From Candidatus Limnocylindrales bacterium (GTDB lineage: Bacteria > Chloroflexota > Limnocylindria > Limnocylindrales > CSP1-4): a DNA stretch of 64,000 nt. A model generated the notes under the pieces. It made no database searches, had not been told where the DNA came from, and saw only the letters and a list, made by a program, of their open reading frames with translations. The stretch covers positions 15,012 to 79,011 of the forward strand of contig DASSMQ010000006.1 in NCBI GenBank assembly GCA_035688805.1, written 5' to 3'. Shown here piece after piece: positions 12,734-33,566 of this stretch. Position 1 is the stretch's first letter. The number at the start of each line of letters is the position of its first letter. The translations under genes were made by a program, and so were the position numbers.

Positions 12734-17035
<4,302 letters not shown>

Positions 17036-22968: not shown

Positions 22969-25900
22969 CTAGCCGAGCCGACGCATGCCGGCATGCCCGA
23001 GCTGTCGGACCCCACCAGGTTGCTCCGGCCCGCCGACCGTGGCGACCACCTCGGGGAGTGGCTTGATGTCGCGAGCGACGAGGTTGACGACCTTGCCTTC
23101 GCGCTGGAGCTCACCATCGACCAGCAGCAGGGCGTGCCGGCGGACCACGCCGCGTAACCGTTCCCAGACGTTCGGCCAGAGGGTCACATTCACCATCCCG
23201 GTCTCGTCCTCGAGCGCCAGGAAGACCGTGCCCTTGGCGGTCATCGGATGCTGCCGGGTGACGACTAGTCCTCCCACCCGGACCCGGCCCGGCCGCCGAT
23301 CGGCCAGTGACGCATTCGGCACCGCCCCGAGTCGATCGAGCGCGGTCCGGAAGAGCCCGACCACCTGCCGGCGGGCATCGACCCCCAGTACCGCATAGGC
23401 GTCACCGACCCGCTCGGACTCGGTGATCGCCGGCAGGTCGGGCGCATCGGTCGCCGGGAGTCGGAGATCCAGCGGCCGGCCCGCTGCCGCGTGCCGCTTG
23501 CCGGCGGCCCGCCCGAGGGCACGGACCGTCCGGCCATCCATCCGACCGCGTGACGCCCCGGCCACCTCGCGCAACTGCCAGAGCAGCTCCCGCCGTGGCC
23601 GGTCCAACGAGTCCATCGCGCCGCTGCGGATGAGTCGCTCGAGCACCTCCTCGGGCAGGCCCGTCCGTTCGACCACGTCGACCAGGTTCCGATACGGGCC
23701 GCGGGCCCGCTCGGCATCGAGCGCTGCCTGGTGCTGCTCCCCGATGCCCTTCACCAGGCCGAGCCCGAGCCGGACCGCCCAGCCGGCGGTCACCGCCGGC
23801 GTCCAGCGCTCCCGCGACGACGCGGAGGGAACGATGCACGCGGAGGAGACGACCGGGTCGGGCTGTGCGTCTGGGCCGATCCACTCGGTCGTCGTCGCGT
23901 AGCACGACGCGTTGACGTCCACGGGCAGCACCGCTACCCCGTGGCGCTTCGTGTCGTTGACCAGGACCTCGACCGGATAGAAGCCCATCGGCTGGGCATT
24001 GATCAGCCCGACCAGGAACTGGGCGGGGTAGAACAGCTTGAGGAAGGCCGACTCGTAGGCGGTCCGGGCGAAGGCCGCCGCGTGCGACTTGGCGAACCCG
24101 AAACTGGCGAACGCGGCGACCTGGCGAAACAGCTCCTCGGCGGTCTCGAGCTCGAGCCCGGGCTGGCGCAGCGCCCCGTCGACGAACCGGTGATGGAGCT
24201 TCTCCATCTCGCGCGATGAACGCCAGGTCCCCATCGCTCGCCGGAAGCCATCCGATTCGGCCGGGCTGAACCCGGCCACCTCGATGGCGATGCGCATGAC
24301 CTGCTCCTGGTAGAGGATCACTCCGAGCGTGTCCTTCAGCACGGGCTCCAGGCTGGGGTGCAGGTAGACGACCGGCTCGAGGCCCTGCTTGCGGCGCAGG
24401 TACGGGTGGACGGCGTTGCCCTGGATCGGCCCGGGTCGGATGATCGCCACCTCGACCACCAGGTCATCGAGCCTGCCCGGCCGCGACTTGGGGAGCGTCT
24501 GCATCTGTGCCCGGCTCTCGACCTGGAAGACGCCCACCGTGTCGGCCGCCTGGAGCATCGCGAAGACCTCGGGCACGTCCTCGGGCAGGCGGTCGAGATC
24601 GAGGCAGACCGCACAGTCATGCTCGATGAGCTGCAGGGTCTCGTCCATCGCGGCGAGCATCCCGAGACCGAGCAGGTCGAGCTTGATGAGCTTGAGCGTC
24701 TCGACGTCGCGCTTGTCGAACTGGACGACCACCCGGTCGGGCATCGTGGCCCGCTCGAGCGGGGCGAGGTCGATGAGGGGGGCGGCCGTGACGAGCATGC
24801 CGCCGCTATGGATGCTGAGGTGACGCGGGAACCCGTCGATCCGGGCGCAGAACTCGAGCCAGCGCTCCCAGTGGGAGAGGCCGACCGTCGAGCCGCCACG
24901 GGCCTGCGGCGGTGGCTCGGGCACGATGCGGGCGACCGAGCTCGCATTCGCTGGGGTCGGCGGGGGATCCCACATGATCGGCCTGCCGAGACGATCGGTC
25001 TTCCGTGGTGGCGGCAGGGTCATGCCGCTCTCCGGATCGACCGGGACGGGTCCCTGGCCCAGCGGGGGTGTGCCATAGCCCGTCCCCCGCCCGGCTCGCA
25101 GCCAGGCCACGCTCGCCGGCGTGTCGCCCGGTCCGCCCTCGTCGTCGGACGGCCCGCGGCGGATCGTCGTGACCGGTGCGAGCGGGTCCTCGCGGAACGC
25201 GGCATCACCACGCTCCGTGGCATTGCCCTCCTCGGTGGTCGATTCCCGGAGCCAGGCGAACGGACGCGGCGCGTCCGGGTCCACCGGGGTCCGCGGCTGC
25301 TTCCACGGTGGCACCTTCCCGATCAGGGGCAGCCGCTTGTTCAACTGGCCCATGCCATCGACCAGCCCGTGCGCCTCCGCCTGTTCGGCCGCGCCGGCCT
25401 CCGGTGGCAGGCCCTCCCCGGATCGTCGGAAGAACTCGGCGAACCCGCCGTCGGCCTCGAGGTCGCGCCGGACCATGACCGAGTCGTACGTCTCGAGCGC
25501 CTTCGCGACCCGATCTACCAGGGGCCGCGGGAAGCCGAGCGCATAGCCCACCTCGCGCACCGCCGAACGCGCCCGGTAGGTGACAAGGTTGCAGACCATC
25601 CCCGTGTGCTCCGGCCCGTAGCGTCGGTAGATGTACTGGATGACCTCCTCGCGCCGAGCCGAGCTGAAGTCGATGTCGACGTCCGGGTACGTCGTCCGAC
25701 CCGGATTGATGAACCGCTCGAACAGGAGGTCGTGGGCGATCGGCTCGACGCGGCTGATCCCGAGGGTGTACGACACGATCGAACTGGTCGCGCTCCCCCG
25801 ACCCTGGGCCGGGATGCCCTGCTCCCTCGCGAAGCGCATCAGGTCCCAGCAGATGAGGAAGAACTCGGCAAGGCCGGCTCGCTCGATGACGTCGAGTTCA

Positions 25901-27072
25901 TGGGCGAGCCGCTTGACCACCGCCGAGGTCAACGGGTGATAGCGCCGCCGTGCGCCGGTCCAGCACAGCTCGGAGAGATGAGAGAACGGTGTCTCACCCT
26001 CAGGGACCGGGAAGCCCGGGAACCGGTACTGCTCGAACCCGAGATCGACCGAGCACGATGCCGCGATCTCGACCGAGTTGGCGATCCCCTCGCGCCAGGC
26101 ACGGGCAGCACTCGACTCGAGCGAGTCGCCGAGCGTTGCCAGCGCCTCGCCCGATTTCAGGAAGGACTCGCCGTCCGGCCGACGCAGATCGGCCAGCGTG
26201 TCGAGCGTCCGGCCGTGTCGGATGGCGGTCAGCACGTCGTGGAACTCGCGGTCGTCGGCCGTCGCGTAATGGACGTCGTTGGTGACCACGACGGGCAGGC
26301 CGAGCTCGATCGCCAGCGCGGCCGATTCGGCGACCAGCCAGTCGTCGTCGGGCAGGAGATGGTGCGACAGCTCGATGAAGAACCCGCTCGTCGACGGGCC
26401 ATCGCCGCGGCCGAAGAGCGTCGCATAGCGCTCGGCGACAGCGCGCGCGCCGGCCCGATCGCCGACCCGCAGGCGTCGCGCGATCTCCCCCTCGCGACAA
26501 GCCGACAGCGCGACCAGGCCATCGTGATCAGCCTCGAGCAGGTCGTGCGTGATGCGCGGCATCGCCTTGGTCCCGGCCAGGTTGGCGTGCGACACCAGGC
26601 GACTCAGGCTGCGCCAGCCGGCAGGGGTCCGGGCGAGGAGCACGAGGTGTGGGCCGCGGGCCCGGTCCCCGACCCCGCGCACATCTTCCTTGACCAGGTC
26701 GCGGTGACCGGGCAGACGGGCGCGATCGGGTCGCGGCCGCACGGGCCGGCCGTCGGTGATCGTCGGCTCGACGGCCGGAGACTCGCCCTGCCGGCGGCGT
26801 GGCCGGCGGCGAGACGGGACCACCACCCGGCCGGGATCGGGCACGGCCGTATCGATCAGGTCGATCTCGGTCCCGACGACGCCAGGGAGGCCAGCCTCCT
26901 CGGCGGCACTCATGAACCGGACGGCGCCGTACAGCCCGTTCCGATCCGTCGCAGCGAGGGCGGTCAGCCCCAGGGCGACGGCCCGCTCGACCAGGTCGTC
27001 CGGCGGCGAGGCGCCATCGAGGAACGAGAAGTTGGTGTGGGCGTGGAGTTCGGCGTATGGGATGGTCGCCAC
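22969..27072 (-). CDS. dnaE2: error-prone DNA polymerase DnaE2 (ImuC) with lineage-specific Pro-rich insertions
   Basis: 1367 aa with a GTG start. The PHP-domain N-terminus is ATIPYAELHAHTNFSFLDGAS and the Pol III alpha core is ...GFPRHLSIHSGGMLVT... There is about 130 aa of extra low-complexity sequence before the GFPRHL motif. Confidence 0.92.
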   Translation of the reverse strand: MATIPYAELHAHTNFSFLDGASPPDDLVERAVALGLTALAATDRNGLYGAVRFMSAAEEAGLPGVVGTEIDLIDTAVPDPGRVVVPSRRRPRRRQGESPAVEPTITDGRPVRPRPDRARLPGHRDLVKEDVRGVGDRARGPHLVLLARTPAGWRSLSRLVSHANLAGTKAMPRITHDLLEADHDGLVALSACREGEIARRLRVGDRAGARAVAERYATLFGRGDGPSTSGFFIELSHHLLPDDDWLVAESAALAIELGLPVVVTNDVHYATADDREFHDVLTAIRHGRTLDTLADLRRPDGESFLKSGEALATLGDSLESSAARAWREGIANSVEIAASCSVDLGFEQYRFPGFPVPEGETPFSHLSELCWTGARRRYHPLTSAVVKRLAHELDVIERAGLAEFFLICWDLMRFAREQGIPAQGRGSATSSIVSYTLGISRVEPIAHDLLFERFINPGRTTYPDVDIDFSSARREEVIQYIYRRYGPEHTGMVCNLVTYRARSAVREVGYALGFPRPLVDRVAKALETYDSVMVRRDLEADGGFAEFFRRSGEGLPPEAGAAEQAEAHGLVDGMGQLNKRLPLIGKVPPWKQPRTPVDPDAPRPFAWLRESTTEEGNATERGDAAFREDPLAPVTTIRRGPSDDEGGPGDTPASVAWLRAGRGTGYGTPPLGQGPVPVDPESGMTLPPPRKTDRLGRPIMWDPPPTPANASSVARIVPEPPPQARGGSTVGLSHWERWLEFCARIDGFPRHLSIHSGGMLVTAAPLIDLAPLERATMPDRVVVQFDKRDVETLKLIKLDLLGLGMLAAMDETLQLIEHDCAVCLDLDRLPEDVPEVFAMLQAADTVGVFQVESRAQMQTLPKSRPGRLDDLVVEVAIIRPGPIQGNAVHPYLRRKQGLEPVVYLHPSLEPVLKDTLGVILYQEQVMRIAIEVAGFSPAESDGFRRAMGTWRSSREMEKLHHRFVDGALRQPGLELETAEELFRQVAAFASFGFAKSHAAAFARTAYESAFLKLFYPAQFLVGLINAQPMGFYPVEVLVNDTKRHGVAVLPVDVNASCYATTTEWIGPDAQPDPVVSSACIVPSASSRERWTPAVTAGWAVRLGLGLVKGIGEQHQAALDAERARGPYRNLVDVVERTGLPEEVLERLIRSGAMDSLDRPRRELLWQLREVAGASRGRMDGRTVRALGRAAGKRHAAAGRPLDLRLPATDAPDLPAITESERVGDAYAVLGVDARRQVVGLFRTALDRLGAVPNASLADRRPGRVRVGGLVVTRQHPMTAKGTVFLALEDETGMVNVTLWPNVWERLRGVVRRHALLLVDGELQREGKVVNLVARDIKPLPEVVATVGGPEQPGGVRQLGHAGMRRLG

Positions 27073-27186: not shown

Positions 27187-28725
27187 ATGGGCTTACCTGA
27201 CCGGGTGCGATCGACCCGTCACCGTCGCCATGCCGCCTGGTCTCGCCTCGTCCTCACCCTGACCGCCGCGGTCACGCTCTTGGCCGGGATCGCGGGCCCG
27301 ATCCCCGCTGTCCGGGCCGCGGACATCCGACCGCGGATCACCGGGATCGCGCCCCTGACCCACGAGGTCTACGGGTATCTCCCCTACTGGCGCCTGGATG
27401 CCGGCACGGTCGACCGGCTGCACTACGACCTCGTGTCGACCATCGCGTTCTTCGGCCTCGGGATCCTCGGGACGGGGGCGATCGACACGTCCTGGATCGG
27501 CTATCGGGCGTACATCGGCGACGACGCGGCGGCGGTCACCAATGCCGCCCACGACCACGGGGTTCGGGTCGTTCCCACGTTCCAGCTGTTCGATTCGGCG
27601 ACCGGCGCGCCCAAGATGACGGCGTTCCTCGGCAGTCGGTCGGCGCAGGACCGGTTCATCGGCGAGGCGCTCGACCTCATGGCCGCACGGAGCGCCGACG
27701 GTGCCGGGCTCGACTTCGAACCGGTCGGCGCCCTGGCCGCGCGCGCCTCGGAGTACGTCGCCTTCGTGGCCCGGTTCCGGGGCGCGATGAAGGCCCGCTT
27801 CCCGGGAGCCACGCTGGTGACCGCGACCTCGGCTGGGGCGACCCAGGAGCTCGTCCAGGGTGTCGCCCCATACGTCGATCATCAGATGGTGATGACCTAC
27901 AACTACCGCTCCTCCGGCTCGACGATCGCCGGCGCGGTTGCCCCGCTCGATCACGCGACGAGGAACGTCAAGAAGCACATCACCCGGATGCTGGGCTGGG
28001 TGCCGGCACGCTCCTTGCTGCTCGGCGAGCCCTATTACGGATACGACTGGCCGGTCACCAGCGCCATCCCGAACGCGACGGTCCAGTCGGACAAGTCGAC
28101 CTATGGCCCCGTCCGGAGCGTCACCTACGCCAGTGCCCGCGATTTCCTGGCCGCGCACCCGAGTGTCGTCCGGCGCTACGACTCTCTCGAGGGGAGCGCC
28201 TTCTACTGGTACTACGACAGCACGAAGCGGACCTACCGCGAAGCCTATTTCGACGATGAGCGGAGCCTCGCCGCGAAGGACGACTACGCGATCGCCACCG
28301 GCCTTGGCGGGATCGGCATCTGGACGCTCGACAACGACCGCGGCTACCGGCAGCTGTGGGACGTCCTCCGTTCGAAGTTCTACGCCCCGGTCCTGAGCAT
28401 GTCGGTCCGGGCGTCGGTCAGCGACCTGACCCGGGTATCCGGGGTCGTGTCCGTGGTCGTCCATGCCGGAGCCACGAATACGGGGACCGTGCCGCTGACC
28501 GGATCGCTGCGCTGGGCGATCCGCGACCCAGGTGGCCGAGTCGTGGCCAGCGGTCATTGGCCGACCACCGTCGTCTACCCTGGCCGGAGCACGAGTCACG
28601 CCGTCCGTGCCGCCCTCGGGCTGGCCACCTCCCTGCCAGCCGGCACCTACCACCTTCGGGTGCGGTTCGTGACGTCGACGAAGGCCTACGGGCCGCCGGA
28701 CGTGGCCTTCCGCCAGCCGTACTGA
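27187..28725 (+). CDS. secreted glycoside hydrolase family 18-like protein (chitinase-like; the catalytic motif is degenerate, DGAGLDFE)
   Basis: 512 aa with signal peptide ...LTAAVTLLAGIAGPIPAVRAA. It has a GH18 (beta/alpha)8 barrel with a DxxxxDxE motif, then a C-terminal beta-rich domain. Confidence 0.75.
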   Translation: MGLPDRVRSTRHRRHAAWSRLVLTLTAAVTLLAGIAGPIPAVRAADIRPRITGIAPLTHEVYGYLPYWRLDAGTVDRLHYDLVSTIAFFGLGILGTGAIDTSWIGYRAYIGDDAAAVTNAAHDHGVRVVPTFQLFDSATGAPKMTAFLGSRSAQDRFIGEALDLMAARSADGAGLDFEPVGALAARASEYVAFVARFRGAMKARFPGATLVTATSAGATQELVQGVAPYVDHQMVMTYNYRSSGSTIAGAVAPLDHATRNVKKHITRMLGWVPARSLLLGEPYYGYDWPVTSAIPNATVQSDKSTYGPVRSVTYASARDFLAAHPSVVRRYDSLEGSAFYWYYDSTKRTYREAYFDDERSLAAKDDYAIATGLGGIGIWTLDNDRGYRQLWDVLRSKFYAPVLSMSVRASVSDLTRVSGVVSVVVHAGATNTGTVPLTGSLRWAIRDPGGRVVASGHWPTTVVYPGRSTSHAVRAALGLATSLPAGTYHLRVRFVTSTKAYGPPDVAFRQPY

Positions 28726-29083: not shown

Positions 29084-29130
29084 GTCACGTCCGGGGGCCG
29101 ATCGGCCCGCAGCCCGTAGACTCATCCGAC

Positions 29131-29670
29131 ATGACATCGCGAACCCGCCGCCTCCTGATGACGATCGTGACGATGGCACTTCTGGGCGGGTGTGGCGGCA
29201 CGTCGCCCGGCAGCCCCGGACCGTCGACTGCCGCGACGGCGACCGCGGCCGCTTCGACGCCGGCCGGGGGACCGAGCACCAGCGCATCGGCCGAACCGAC
29301 CGCCACGACCCCGCGTGCCGGTCCCGCGGTGGGTCAGACCGACACCGACTGGGGCCGGATCTGGGACGCCGTCCCGACCGATTTCCCGCGGTTCCCAGGA
29401 TCGAAGGTCGCCGATGACACGGGCGAGGCGCCGGTCAGCGCCCGGTTCGCGGTCGACGGCGGCGATCCCAAGGCGATGGCCGCCTGGATGCAGTCGGCGA
29501 TGGAGACGGCCGCGTACAGTACGGAGGGCCTCAACGGGCCCCTCGAGGATGGCAGCATGGTCCTCGAATCGGTCGGGGATGGCGGCTGTCGCATCCAGAC
29601 GACGATCGCCCCGCTCGGCGGGACGGTCTTCGTGACGATCCGGTACGGCGCCGCCTGCCCGCTGCACTGA
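29131..29670 (+). CDS. lipoprotein (lipobox LLGGC) with a low-complexity Ala/Thr/Pro linker
   Basis: 179 aa starting MTSRTRRLLMTIVTMALLGGCGG. Confidence 0.65.
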   Translation: MTSRTRRLLMTIVTMALLGGCGGTSPGSPGPSTAATATAAASTPAGGPSTSASAEPTATTPRAGPAVGQTDTDWGRIWDAVPTDFPRFPGSKVADDTGEAPVSARFAVDGGDPKAMAAWMQSAMETAAYSTEGLNGPLEDGSMVLESVGDGGCRIQTTIAPLGGTVFVTIRYGAACPLH

Positions 29671-29691
29671 CCACAGGAGCATCGATCGCGC

Positions 29692-29799
29692 ATGCAGCCC
29701 CGCTCCACCGACTTCCTTGGTGCCGCGCTCCTGGCCATCGTCCTGATCGGGCTGGTGGTGATCCTGTTCGTCGGCAATATCCCGGCGGCCACCGCCTGA
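29692..29799 (+). CDS. candidate 35-aa single-TM peptide
   Basis: An AGGAGC RBS sits about 14 nt upstream. It encodes MQPRSTDFLGAALLAIVLIGLVVILFVGNIPAATA and is paralogous to the next peptide. Confidence 0.4.
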   Translation: MQPRSTDFLGAALLAIVLIGLVVILFVGNIPAATA

Positions 29800-29904
29800 A
29801 TCCGGTAGCTGCGCGCGGTTCTCGTCGCGCGTTGTGCTCGCCCCGCCGCTATGCTGTGGCTGGATCGACCGGGACTTCGGTCCGGACAGGGGGAACGCCG
29901 CTCC

Positions 29905-30009
29905 ATGCAATCGGCACGACCGCGTGATCTGGGTGTCCTCGTCCTCGCGATGGGGGTCCTGCTCGTTCTGTTCGTGGTGAGCCTGACGCTCGGGTCGCCG
30001 TTGCGCTGA
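29905..30009 (+). CDS. candidate 34-aa single-TM peptide
   Basis: An AGGGGGA RBS lies upstream. It encodes MQSARPRDLGVLVLAMGVLLVLFVVSLTLGSPLR. Confidence 0.4.
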   Translation: MQSARPRDLGVLVLAMGVLLVLFVVSLTLGSPLR

Positions 30010-30028
30010 GTCCGGTCCGGCACGGACG

Positions 30029-30277
30029 TCAGTCGTACAGACGTTCGATATGCCAGGTGCCGGCGATCCGGTCGAGATAGACGAGCGCGAGCCAGCGTTC
30101 GCCCACGACCTTCGCGTACTCGCGGGCGATCGGATCGCGCCACCACGACTCATCGACCCGCCAGCGGTTGCACACCTCGACCGCCTCGCGACGCCCGTTC
30201 CAGCGGATGGCGATGAGCCGTCCATCGCCATCGAGCTCGACGTCGATGCGCGGATGCTCGCGCAGGAGGCGGGTCAT
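30029..30277 (-). CDS. 82-aa conserved hypothetical protein translationally coupled to imuB (an alternative start at 30286 gives MAGMTR..)
   Basis: Its ATG overlaps the imuB TGA (ATGA). It encodes MTRLLREHPRIDVELDGDGRLIAIRWNGRREAVEVCNRWRVDESWWRDPIAREYAKVVGERWLALVYLDRIAGTWHIERLYD. Confidence 0.5.
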   Translation of the reverse strand: MTRLLREHPRIDVELDGDGRLIAIRWNGRREAVEVCNRWRVDESWWRDPIAREYAKVVGERWLALVYLDRIAGTWHIERLYD

Positions 30278-31548
30278 GCCGGCCATCCGTCGCGCCCGTC
30301 GTCGGCGAGCCCGACTGAGCGCCACGCCCAGCGTGCTTCCGCCAGCGGCGCCTCCGGGTCGGTGATGGCGACCCGGCGGATGCGATCCTCCCCGTAGGTC
30401 AGCGCCAGCCTCGCCAGCTGCCACCCGAGTCGGGCCGTCCGGGCGGCCTGGGGCACGAACAACGGCAGTTGTTGGCCCGCCGCCGGGGTCGTGCCGCGCA
30501 GTTCCAGGTCGATCCGCTGGACCGCTGCCGGCGGCGGCTGGCGCTCGAGGCGCGCGAACAGCAGACGCTCGACGGCTTCGGGGTCCGCGGTGGGTTCCGG
30601 GAAGCGCTGCTCGACCTCCATCCGCGGCGACGTACCGACCGGCGCGAACGCAAGGTCCAGTTCCAGCGTCAGCACTGCCCGATCCGCGGCGAGCCCTCGA
30701 CCGGTGAGCTGGGCGGCCAGCGCCGCCACTAGGCGATGGAGGACGAACCGGAGCGGCTCGAGCTCCTCGACCGGGGGTTCGATGGGCAGGGCGAGGGCCA
30801 GGCGCTCGGTCGCGTGGCGAGCCCCGAACGGCTCGGTCTCCTCGCCTCGAGCACGAGCATGGAGCCGCGCGCCCTCCTCGCCGAACCGGGCGATCAGCGC
30901 GGATCGCGGGAGGACCGCCACCGCGCCGATCCGACGCAGTCCGAAGCGGGTCAGGCGTGCCCGGACATCGGGGTCGGTGGTGAGCAGCCCGGACGGACGG
31001 TCGGCCAGGAACGCCGCCTCACCCCCGGGTGGGACGATGATCGGACCGTCCGGGGTGGCGGCCAGCGCCGCGACCGAGGCGGCGAACCGGGTGCCGGCGA
31101 TCCCGGCGCGCGGTGACGGCTCCCCGGGGAGGGCGCCTCGCAGCGCCGCACCGGCCCGCTCGATCAGTCGGGGCTCGGCCCCCCACAGCGGCTCGAGCCC
31201 ATCGATCCCGACCTCGAAGAACCCGAATGAGGCCGCCGATGGGTCGCTGGTCCCGGCCAGGCTCGGGCTGGATCGCCCGAGCGCCTCGAACACGGCCTCG
31301 GCAGCTCCCCGATCCGCATCGGGATCGGGGTCGATGAAGGTCGCCTCAGGGACGAGTCGGTGGGCGCTCCCGAGCGGCATCCCGCGTCGGACGCCGAGCG
31401 CCCGAGCTGTCGGATCGGCGTCGAGGACCGGACCCGGATCCCAGGGTCGCCCGCCCAGCACGAGCGGGCCGGTCGGGAAGGGCTCGGAGCGTCGAGCCCG
31501 GGCCAGGTGGAGCGGCAGGTGCGGCACGAACAGGTGCAGACGTCGCAT
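30274..31548 (-). CDS. imuB: ImuB, the Y-family polymerase-like mutasome subunit
   Basis: ORF 30274..32127 is trimmed to the Met of MRRLHLFVPHLPLHLA, which is the typical ImuB/DinB-like N-terminus. Downstream are the motifs ..LGVRRGMPL.. and ..AIAGTRFAASVAA. Confidence 0.78.
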   Translation of the reverse strand: MRRLHLFVPHLPLHLARARRSEPFPTGPLVLGGRPWDPGPVLDADPTARALGVRRGMPLGSAHRLVPEATFIDPDPDADRGAAEAVFEALGRSSPSLAGTSDPSAASFGFFEVGIDGLEPLWGAEPRLIERAGAALRGALPGEPSPRAGIAGTRFAASVAALAATPDGPIIVPPGGEAAFLADRPSGLLTTDPDVRARLTRFGLRRIGAVAVLPRSALIARFGEEGARLHARARGEETEPFGARHATERLALALPIEPPVEELEPLRFVLHRLVAALAAQLTGRGLAADRAVLTLELDLAFAPVGTSPRMEVEQRFPEPTADPEAVERLLFARLERQPPPAAVQRIDLELRGTTPAAGQQLPLFVPQAARTARLGWQLARLALTYGEDRIRRVAITDPEAPLAEARWAWRSVGLADDGRDGWPA

Positions 31549-32719
31549 GGTCGGTCTCGCGATCGGGGGCCTCATGAACGGGGGCGTGGACGGGAGGCGG
31601 CGGAGCGGCCGACAGCCGGAGGTCGACCGGATCGGCCCAGCGGGTGGGTTCCTTGCTTCCCGCGTACGAGCTTGCAGGCACGGCAAGTACCACGGGCGAG
31701 GACCGCGTACGGGCCTCATCTCCGAGCGATCCCTTGCCTTCGGGGCAAGGAACGGCGGCGATGGCCCGGCTATCGGTCGACGGCACCTCATCACTTGCGA
31801 GGACCGCAAGTTCCACGACCATCTCGCCTGGCCGTGCAGCGGTACTTGCCGTGGAGGCAAGCCCTTGCGCCGCGGGCACGTCGAGCGCGTCGAACAGGAG
31901 GGCGTCGTCGGCGAGGCACGCATCGCGCTCACCGCCCTCCGCGTAGAGGATCCGCAGGATGGCTCGGCGTCCCGGCGGACCGTGGCGGTTGTGGGCGACG
32001 AGCGCCTCGGTCCGCTGCCCGACGACGTCCCGGCCGAGACGGACCCAGGACCGCCGAGCGAGCTCCAGCCGGATGCCGGTCGATTGGTCGACCGCGGTCG
32101 TGAGGCCACCGCCCGACCCGGGCGCATCGAGGATCAGGAGCAGCGTCTCCGCCCGCCGGGCGAGAGCGGCGAGTCGATGGAGGCGATCGGCGATCTTCGC
32201 CGGCGTGTCGGTCCTGGCCAGACGGCCACCGGGCAGGTCGATGACGAGCAGGTCGACCGAGCGGCCGGCCAGCAGGCTGCCGGCGATGCCCAGGCCCTCG
32301 TCCAGGCTGGCCGGGGTGATGACCACGAGCCATTCGAGCCGGATGCCGCGGCTGACGGCTTCGACCGGGTCGAAGCTGCGCGACAGGTCCAGCCACGCCA
32401 CGACCGAGCCCTGGGCCTGGGCCTCCGCGGCGACCCGCAGGCTGAGGGTCGTCCGCCCGCTCGAGCCTTCCCCCCGGATCGCGACGCTGGCCGAGGTCGG
32501 CAACCCGCCCGGTCCGAGGATCGCGTCGAGGGCGGCGAAGCCGGTGTGGATGATCCGGTCGGCGGGCCGTGGGTCGGCGGAGGGTGACGGTCCCGGCATC
32601 TCTGTGGGGACCGGTGCCGGAGCCAGGGCCAGGGCGCCGACCACGCTCGGAGCTGCAGCACCCCAGCGGGCCCGGAGGCCCGCGACGGCGGCATCCACAT
32701 CACCCCGACCGGTCGACAT
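31346..32719 (-). CDS. imuA: ImuA (RecA-fold, SulA/ImuA' family). The core is about the first 255 aa. The 3' 200 codons are low-complexity, run through a hairpin-repeat cluster and overlap imuB, so the true stop is uncertain.
   Basis: The RecA-like core reads TGFAALDAILGPGGLPTSASVAIRGEGSSGRTTLSLRVAAEAQAQGSVVAWLDL. A LexA box lies 15 to 30 nt upstream. There is no in-frame stop until 31346. Confidence 0.7.
   Translation of the reverse strand: MSTGRGDVDAAVAGLRARWGAAAPSVVGALALAPAPVPTEMPGPSPSADPRPADRIIHTGFAALDAILGPGGLPTSASVAIRGEGSSGRTTLSLRVAAEAQAQGSVVAWLDLSRSFDPVEAVSRGIRLEWLVVITPASLDEGLGIAGSLLAGRSVDLLVIDLPGGRLARTDTPAKIADRLHRLAALARRAETLLLILDAPGSGGGLTTAVDQSTGIRLELARRSWVRLGRDVVGQRTEALVAHNRHGPPGRRAILRILYAEGGERDACLADDALLFDALDVPAAQGLASTASTAARPGEMVVELAVLASDEVPSTDSRAIAAVPCPEGKGSLGDEARTRSSPVVLAVPASSYAGSKEPTRWADPVDLRLSAAPPPPVHAPVHEAPDRETDHATSAPVRAAPAAPPGPGSTLRALPDRPARAGRATLGSGSGPRRRSDSSGARRPTRDAARERPPTRP
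31664..31861. repeat. cluster of four short hairpins sharing a CTTGC(C)/(G)GCAAG stem at roughly 55 to 60-bp spacing
   Basis: The hairpins are gtacgagCTTGCaggcacgGCAAGtac, cCTTGCCttcggGGCAAGg, aCTTGCgaggaccGCAAGt and CTTGCCgtggaGGCAAG, followed by gcaagcccttgc. The flanking spacers share cctcatc and gaggaccgc. Confidence 0.5.
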
Positions 32720-32732
32720 CGGACGTCGATAG

Positions 32733-32748
32733 TAGAACAGATGTTCTA
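32733..32748. promoter_or_regulatory. LexA SOS box (GAAC-N4-GTTC) upstream of imuA, in the intergenic region shared with the divergent response regulator
   Basis: tAGAACagatGTTCTa is a perfect palindrome, 15 to 30 nt upstream of the imuA ATG. Confidence 0.75.
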
Positions 32749-32816
32749 GTCAGGCAAGCCGTTTCCGTCACCCGATCGACACGAGCGATGGCTAGCCTCG
32801 GCCTACCATGCTGCCG

Positions 32817-33566
32817 ATGCCGACCTCGACCTCCGACCCCGCGGTCCCGACCGCGCCGATCCTCGTCGTCGACGACGACGCGAAGATCGTCCGGCTCGTG
32901 CGGACCTACCTCGAACGGGACGGGTTCTCGGTCGTGACCGCCGCCGACGGCCCGGCCGCGCTCGCCGCGATCGAGGCCCATGCGCCCGCCCTCGTCGTGC
33001 TGGACCTGATGCTCCCCGAACTGGACGGGCGGGCCGTCATCCGGGCCGTCCGCCGCGACGACGAGGCCGGCCGCACGCCGATCCTCGTCCTGTCCGCGCG
33101 TAGCTCGACCATCGACCGGATCGCCGGACTCGAGGATGGGGCCGACGACTACCTGCCCAAGCCGTTCTCACCCGCCGAGCTCGTGCTCCGGGTGAAGTCG
33201 ATCCTGCGCCGTGCGGCGCCGGCCGGGGCAGGCCTGGCGGATGCCCGACGACCATCGACTCCGCTGCTCCGCCACGCCGATCTCACCGTCGACCCGTCCC
33301 GCCACGAGGTCCGCCGCGGCGACGCGGCCATCGACCTCACCCGGGTCGAGTTCAAGCTGCTGTCGACGATCCTGGCGGCGGATGGCCGCGTCCTGTCGCG
33401 CGACCAGCTGCTCGACGCCGTGTACGGCCACGAGGCGGCCGACGTCCTCGACCGGACCATCGACGTGCATGTCCGCCGATTGCGCGACAAGCTCGACGAT
33501 GACCCGGAAGCGCCGCGCTATGTCCAGACCGTGCGCGGCATCGGGTATCGCGCCGCCCGGACGTGA
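32817..33566 (+). CDS. OmpR/PhoB-family response regulator
   Basis: It has a receiver domain (ILVVDDD...LDLMLPELDG...DDYLPKPF) and a winged-helix C-terminus (...IDVHVRRLRDKL...VRGIGYR). Confidence 0.9.
   Translation: MPTSTSDPAVPTAPILVVDDDAKIVRLVRTYLERDGFSVVTAADGPAALAAIEAHAPALVVLDLMLPELDGRAVIRAVRRDDEAGRTPILVLSARSSTIDRIAGLEDGADDYLPKPFSPAELVLRVKSILRRAAPAGAGLADARRPSTPLLRHADLTVDPSRHEVRRGDAAIDLTRVEFKLLSTILAADGRVLSRDQLLDAVYGHEAADVLDRTIDVHVRRLRDKLDDDPEAPRYVQTVRGIGYRAART

Follow-up and report, generated by a model that had tools for sequence, protein, structure and literature searches.

In a 64-kb stretch of DNA from a Candidatus Limnocylindrales bacterium (the window: 64,000 nucleotides (nt) of contig DASSMQ010000006.1), the 3' part of imuA, upstream of the start of imuB, carries a cluster of short palindromes. 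This cluster is probably a single copy of a modular element made of palindromic repeats and scattered through the Limnocylindrales, that is, selfish or passenger DNA with no locus-specific task in the imuA-imuB operon. The host is a high-GC member of the Chloroflexota, order Limnocylindrales, the name borne by its nearest proteins and loci. The best-supported reading of the element is that it represents a new family of clustered palindromic repeats, which behave like repetitive extragenic palindromic sequences and bacterial interspersed mosaic elements (REP/BIME) or like MITEs (miniature inverted-repeat transposable elements). Since the element is dispersed and its copy here lies in the dispensable tail of imuA, passenger DNA is a likelier explanation for it than a switch between imuA and imuB.

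An in-frame insertion of a five-hairpin element in imuA

The array is located past the region encoding the conserved core of ImuA, which ends near position 31898, and ahead of the imuB ATG at 31548, placing it within the operon, 120-330 nt 5' of the imuB start codon. It contains four exact 17-mers of the form CTTGC-N7-GCAAG (31671-31687, 31733-31749, 31794-31810 and 31845-31861), which have an identical 7-nt gap and follow each other with start-to-start steps of 62, 61 and 51 nt. An earlier note on this DNA, made from the sequence alone, had reported a cluster of four hairpins at this position, and the cluster is real: the pattern CTTGC-N3-11-GCAAG has 5 matches in the window against 0.10 expected, and none of 100 shuffles attained 5. 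The further palindrome that the note placed beyond these four also exists, as a degenerate copy with one mismatch, CTTGCGCCGCGGGCACG, at 31864-31880 (no strand assigned), which abuts the first hairpin module; the palindrome gcaagcccttgc is produced by the overlap of this copy with the neighbouring site.

We distinguish five hairpin modules, named H1 to H5 and given here in mRNA sense: H1 (GGGCTTGCCTCCACGGCAAGTACC, 31845..31861), with a local fold of -11.2 kcal/mol; H2 (ACTTGCGGTCCTCGCAAGT, 31794..31810), with -9.5 kcal/mol; H3 (TTCCTTGCCCCGAAGGCAAGGGA, 31733..31749), with -14.4 kcal/mol and a reading frame unlike that of H1, H2 and H4; H4 (GGTACTTGCCGTGCCTGCAAGC, 31671..31687), which has exact arms and whose local hairpin is not the minimum-energy fold; and the degenerate H5 (CGTACGCGGGAAGCAAG followed by GAAC, 31652..31668), which has two mismatches and was recognized from the alignment of copies (alignment A6) together with direct reading of the sequence. 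In that alignment H5 is collinear with the TCCTTGCC..GCAAGAAAC of other copies. Local RNA hairpins are stable for three of the four exact palindromes, at -9.5 to -14.4 kcal/mol (z -2.7 to -3.6). As for the motifs that had been reported as common to the spacers, CGAGGACCG is indeed shared; GGGCCTCAT is repeated too, its second copy (31567-31575) falling outside the array, and a second CCTCATC between the hairpins, near 31787, was read directly from the sequence. The suggestion of a degenerate minisatellite was not borne out: Tandem Repeats Finder reported zero tandem repeats at the array, and hence the units are not minisatellite copies at the sequence level.

Comparison with related loci indicates that the array came with an insertion into the 3' end of imuA, as the earlier note had considered. 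In 80 related loci the ImuA core and the imuB ATG are usually 34-100 nt apart, as against 349-350 nt here, and an alignment with four insertion-less loci (L001-L004) reveals clean flanks around an extra block of 300 nt, or 100 codons, at 31598..31897 on the minus strand, which constitutes one copy of the five-hairpin element in imuA sense. On a tree of ImuA cores, loci with long linkers form at least four groups that are interspersed with insertion-less loci. Linker lengths counted from the LYAEGG motif range from 85 to 625 nt across the scorable loci, and the frame relation between imuA and imuB is kept in 39 of 40 of these, all long-linker loci included, with the imuA frame stopping 200-230 nt inside imuB wherever it is kept. 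The kept frame implies that the 300-nt block is read through as part of ImuA, contrary to the earlier suspicion that the reading frame might be non-coding there. The block is nevertheless one that is translated and looks non-coding in composition: GC content by codon position is flat in the linker (0.75/0.61/0.72) as opposed to the core (0.78/0.59/0.88), and is likewise flat in most of eight other long linkers. An example of an ImuA tail peptide encoded in the insert is GEMVVELAVLASDEVPSTDSR.

The sole exception to the kept frame, locus L012, bears a 2.7-kb gene insertion at the identical point of the linker, which hence seems to be a hot spot for insertions. This insert (L012 3700-6433) encodes an ABC-transporter ATPase and two open reading frames (ORFs) without a confident Pfam match, and imuB of L012 has its own LexA box, TAGAACATATGTTCTA, just 5' of its ATG. 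Right before the imuB start, a PVHEAPDRE motif is conserved in the imuA frame. The overlap of imuA with imuB, 67 residues long, has few stop codons because the first codon positions of imuA fall on the third positions of imuB, which are GC-rich.

We propose that one copy of the element may have landed in the ImuA linker, probably the sole part of imuA where additional sequence is tolerated; this linker joins the RecA-like core to a short conserved C-terminal stretch overlapping the imuB start. As the imuA frame must be kept, only copies with a length that is a multiple of three would survive at this point. The element would then be translated as about 100 extra residues of ImuA, which are probably disordered.

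Dispersal of the element and conservation of its arms

Homologous arrays occur in other contexts within the same bacterial order, in agreement with the earlier idea of a small dispersed repeat family. Copies are about 300-330 nt long and consist of four to six short palindromes with CTTGC...GCAAG arms, free centres and a fixed order; the succession from H1 to H5 is common to all seven arrays that were compared. The module consensus sequences are ACTTGCC-N5-GGCAAGTAC for H1, CTTGC-N7-GCAAGGA for H2, TCCTTGCC...GCAAGGA for H3, TAC-TTGCC-N5-GGCAAG for H4 and TCTTGCC-N5-GGCAAGAAA for H5, and alignment A6 has GTAC or TTAC as the flank preceding H4 and GTA(A/C)C as the one following H1. The GTAC/TTAC beside H1 and H4 is a candidate cleavage site. 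With a profile built from the seven arrays, every copy obtains 150-194 bits in one orientation and 22-56 bits in the other, and the element therefore has a polarity. Run against the window, the profile recovered a single match at 31913-31600 on the minus strand, with 180 bits as against 51 bits on the opposite strand.

Within the imuA linker, the same array is present in locus L201, whose ImuA core shows 94% protein and 88% nucleotide identity, with one unit duplicated and two arms decayed; the linker arrays of loci L026 and L202 are collinear, with a nucleotide identity of only about 60%, and some arms are decayed in L202 too. Decay of this kind is as expected of passenger copies. An inversion of the array between the window and L026 was considered and dropped, because both arrays follow the same collinear order and degenerate end units are present in the window as well.

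Away from imuA, the metagenome contig L103 (identical to L210 and L212) has an array of five sites, four of them exact and one degenerate, whose flanks and order are the same; it begins 12 nt past the stop codon of an XRE-HTH gene and converges with rpoD. The RpoD of this contig is 89-90% identical to proteins named Candidatus Limnocylindrales. A 21.7-kb stretch, L214, whose RpoD is 96% identical to that of L103, contains a pair of arrays, separated by 3 kb and oppositely oriented (12787-13100, plus strand, and 15963-16290, minus strand, with profile scores of 185 and 153 bits). The second of these is flanked by genes for a rhodanese and a tRNA; the corresponding rhodanese-tRNA spacer of L213, which has an RpoD 98% identical to that of L103, is about 50 nt long and free of any array. 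Among the matches listed in a metagenome scan for two CTTGC-N7-GCAAG sites, most were unrelated repeats, for instance CueR/MerR-type operators, tandem repeats or low-GC repeats, and none occurred with imuA; L103 alone was clearly related and L106 possibly so, the ORFs flanking the latter giving no Pfam match. A copy of the element was not found in the viral contigs scanned. In three contigs (L085 1018-1087, L090 and L144), palindromes of the form ACCTTGCC-N5-GGCAAGGT lie in divergent promoter-like regions beside an apparent metal-binding gene. We rejected these as members of the family, since they appear to be operators of the CueR/MerR type that share the CTTGCC/GGCAAG arms by coincidence.

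The arms stand out from the remaining element by their conservation. In two pairs of close copies they differ at 3 of 40 positions as against 80 of 257 in the rest of the insert, and at 2 of 50 as against 87 of 397 (Fisher p = 0.001 each), which amounts to a rate of change about four times slower. The core common to 62 sites, drawn from three contexts, is TGC-N7-GCA, with the next outward pair being T:A or G:C, few sites being mixed, and both forms occurring inside one genome. The arms could be kept through recognition as DNA hairpins or palindromes by a trans-acting factor. The element would be selfish or mobile in nature, and for its mobilization we favour a single-strand transposase of the REP/RAYT type (RAYT, REP-associated tyrosine transposase) or of the IS200/IS605 type as the putative agent.

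The imu locus and competing explanations

The imuA gene (31346..32719, minus strand) encodes a RecA-fold core at residues ~52-274 (PF00154, E = 5e-24; the NCBIfam ImuA model was matched weakly, well under its cut-off) followed by the variable linker, and its frame enters imuB by 203 nt. The imuB gene (30274..31548, minus strand), which starts with MRRLHLFVPHLPL, codes for a Y-family polymerase-like protein with IMS and IMS_C domains. In the promoter region of imuA (32729..32757, minus strand) we read from the sequence a -35 element TTGCCT, a LexA box TAGAACATCTGTTCTA at 32733-32748 and a -10 element TACTAT; the box is of the Gram-positive type and is found at the same offset from imuA in the scored relatives. 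The hairpin motif itself was excluded as a LexA (SOS) operator, as it differs from the lineage box GAAC-N4-GTTC, which is located upstream of imuA. A two-component system is divergently transcribed upstream of imuA, and a gene for a DnaE-type polymerase of 1367 aa (22969-27072, minus strand) lies downstream of imuB. Between the latter two are a GH18 glycosyl hydrolase gene (27187-28725, plus strand) and a 369-aa ORF without a Pfam match (29122-30231, minus strand), owing to which the imuA-imuB-dnaE2 cassette is interrupted here.

Some 17 of about 90 Limnocylindrales genomes have arrays of related palindromes with the same core, placed either in the imuA-imuB linker or upstream of the imuA promoter. 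In eight relatives the intergenic region between the response-regulator gene and imuA is enlarged by 300-450 nt and contains several palindromes of the GCGTGCATCAGATGCACGC and GCGGCATCAGATGCCGC types (L002 2626-2830, L003, L006 2554-2770, L007 2342-2545, L016, L019 2656-2836, L022 2068-2270 and L207 110-425). Six further relatives have linker arrays of another subtype (L023 3720-4070, L205, L206, L207, L208 and L209), with variant arms such as TTGCATC-N-GATGCA or GTGCA-N5-TGCAC; a profile built from these variant linker arrays does not pick up the ones upstream of imuA. At one and the same linker point, the sister loci L023 and L026 differ in array subtype. This distribution could be taken as a sign of a real affinity of the CTTGC-N7-GCAAG family and its TGCATC-N-GATGCA relatives for the SOS mutasome locus. 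Such an affinity is unlikely; if true, it would mean either a hairpin element that prefers this site, or binding sites or hairpin DNA functionally tied to the expression or action of ImuA-ImuB-DnaE2. A preference for this target, a role connected with imuA or a small number of old insertions could each lie behind the clustering.

This same distribution is among several observations that weigh against interpreting the array as dispersed passenger DNA. In about 17 genomes, over about 440 kb around imuA, related arrays are confined to the region upstream of the imuA promoter or to the linker, with none elsewhere, a pattern that might point to some tie with imuA instead of passenger insertion at random. 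Copies number one in the 64-kb window, two in the 21.7 kb of L214 and none in the three stretches L213, L215 and L216 of 14-22 kb. In the copies and site comparisons examined there is no transposase, no terminal inverted repeat and no target-site duplication; comparison of filled with empty sites (the window against L001-L004, and L214 against L213) gave no clear duplication, the flanks having diverged. Mobility is something we infer, patchy presence being its only basis. The GT[AG]G hallmark of REP sequences is absent from the flanks in alignment A6, which have GTAC or TTAC instead, and for want of this hallmark, a transposase, terminal repeats and a target duplication we do not file the element as a REP. 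Finally, the test of arm conservation is slightly biased, the arms having been defined as intact in the reference sequence.

An unlikely alternative is that the palindromes are operator-like 17-bp sites for a dimeric protein that binds double-stranded DNA, with a regulatory or chromosome-organizing role and the imuA locus as one target. Such a protein would account for the arm spacing, fixed at N7 in every exact site, for the perfect arms of H4 even though its local hairpin is not the best fold, and for the G at position +8 in 32 of 36 linker sites, paired or not. It would also suit the placement of one palindrome about 45 nt upstream of the imuA LexA box in five relatives (L002, L007, L016, L019 and L207) and the restriction of related palindromes near imuA to the upstream region and the linker. 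Operators would, however, hardly be expected to differ in presence between close relatives at orthologous sites, or to occur in unrelated contexts in either orientation with no common neighbour gene among the copies. Moreover, the coexistence of t:a and g:c outer pairs in one genome fits pairing better than a single half-site consensus, and no candidate protein was identified. Another explanation, in our estimate improbable, is that the hairpins act in the imuA-imuB mRNA by stabilizing the imuA segment, pausing ribosomes or tuning imuB translation, possibly as a secondary use of the insert. REP sequences act in this way inside some E. coli operons, and the array is suitably placed within the operon; three of its hairpins are stable alone, and a 246-nt region folds better than shuffles with z = -3.9 on the mRNA strand as against -1.9 on the other. 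Yet most relatives run the same operon without an array, and one intergenic copy is antisense to both of its neighbour genes. Further, A:C mismatches (28) exceed G:U (14) on the mRNA strand, which lends no support to a hairpin selected in the imuA transcript. The attenuator or terminator that the earlier note had envisaged finds no U-tract or other terminator-like tail, and besides the lack of the stretch in most relatives, the presence of the element in unrelated intergenic DNA in either orientation speaks against it. The structured RNA of the same note fares no better in view of these mismatches and of Rfam, where neither the whole window, run at the gathering threshold, nor the region and five loci, searched with sensitive settings, gave more than chance-level matches (E above 1). 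A by-eye check of the hairpin loops for GGA, as in CsrA sponges, gave no consistent pattern.

It is very unlikely that the element encodes, as a gene in multiple copies, a structured non-coding RNA with five hairpins, the imuA copy then being accidental or decayed. Module order and polarity are conserved across copies, and RNAalifold predicts pairs with changes on both sides, both of which a gene of this kind would explain. Much of the apparent covariation, however, arises from the interchangeable identical arms, H1-H4 pairing being as good as the local hairpins; centres and spacers vary freely, no Rfam family was matched, and a scan of the window copy alone (31200-32900) found no promoter or terminator sites on either strand. 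The explanation closest to being refuted is selection of an LAxxAS peptide repeat in a functional ImuA linker, with the hairpins as a by-product. Three of the four palindromes (H1, H2 and H4) do encode L-A-x-x-A-S in the imuA frame, which is kept, but the fourth (H3) is read in another frame as PCPEGKG. One nucleotide motif is similarly read in two frames in L202 (LPxPQ and LAPVAS) and in L208, where four of the five linker copies give VHxxH and one, in another frame, CTPCT. The same element occurs in intergenic DNA, and conservation at the protein level is missing from the ImuA tail: relatives whose cores are 88-91% identical align over only about 56% of the query. Together with the flat codon-position GC, the two frames and the unconserved tail imply that it is the nucleotide palindrome, and not the peptide, that is conserved.

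Comparison with known repeat systems

Taking the array as a copy of a dispersed palindromic element, we find the family undescribed in Rfam release 15 and in the literature searched, which gave analogies only. For the operon itself the outcome is mostly negative, with nothing pointing to an imuA/imuB switch. The element would account for the long, variable, low-complexity ImuA tails in an uncultured soil lineage as translated repeat DNA rather than a functional domain, which makes these tails unsuited to homology or structure inference. As the family lives in the Limnocylindria, a group without a cultured model, it might be used to mark genome plasticity and to track down the mobilizing enzyme.

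With clustered regularly interspaced short palindromic repeats (CRISPR) the array shares partly palindromic repeats and a period of about 50-62 nt, but, as the earlier note rightly judged, it is not one of them: its repeats are 17-21 nt long with centres that all differ, in place of near-identical direct repeats of 23-47 nt, no tandem repeat was detected, the region that holds the array is translated, and its "spacers" recur collinearly from one genome to another. The REP/BIME sequences of enterobacteria and pseudomonads, which are mobilized by RAYT, a Y1 HUH transposase, are closer in kind. Like them, the element is built of short imperfect palindromes that form hairpins, with unit lengths in keeping with the ~20-40 nt of REP/BIME units, with lineage-specific conserved stems and variable loops; the units are clustered with spacers of tens of nt, lie in intergenic DNA, at gene 3' ends and between operon genes, and are patchy between relatives. 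It departs from them in lacking the GT[AG]G head in favour of the GTAC or TTAC flanks, in the fixed five-module order and polarity of the cluster, and in the translation of the window copy; alternating orientation, if present, would be invisible as the units are nearly symmetric. A RAYT gene was not identified for the element, which is known here from loci rather than from whole genomes.

Modular repeats and MITEs such as pneumococcal BOX, the Neisseria Correia elements and the enterobacterial repetitive intergenic consensus (ERIC) are a few hundred nt long, modular and co-transcribable with their neighbours. The element resembles these in size, modular build, strong potential for secondary structure, the many genomic contexts it occupies and its capacity for co-transcription. 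Its modules, however, are reiterations of one 17-nt palindrome; alignment A6 shows no terminal inverted repeats beyond the internal palindromes, and no clear target duplication was seen between filled and empty sites, whose flanks have diverged. A parallel for the copy in imuA is offered by the Rickettsia palindromic elements (RPE), which are described as selfish DNA that has entered protein-coding genes in frame: here too a dispersed palindromic element sits in an ORF, leaves the frame unbroken and adds a peptide in a tolerant part of the protein. The element differs from RPE in its probably unrelated sequence, in being a multi-hairpin array in place of one long palindrome, and in the mainly intergenic position of the copies seen so far; homology to the RPE families is unlikely in view of the host's phylum and GC content. 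What the imuA linker of this free-living, high-GC Chloroflexota lineage offers is a case outside Rickettsia of palindromic repeat DNA surviving in frame in a gene.

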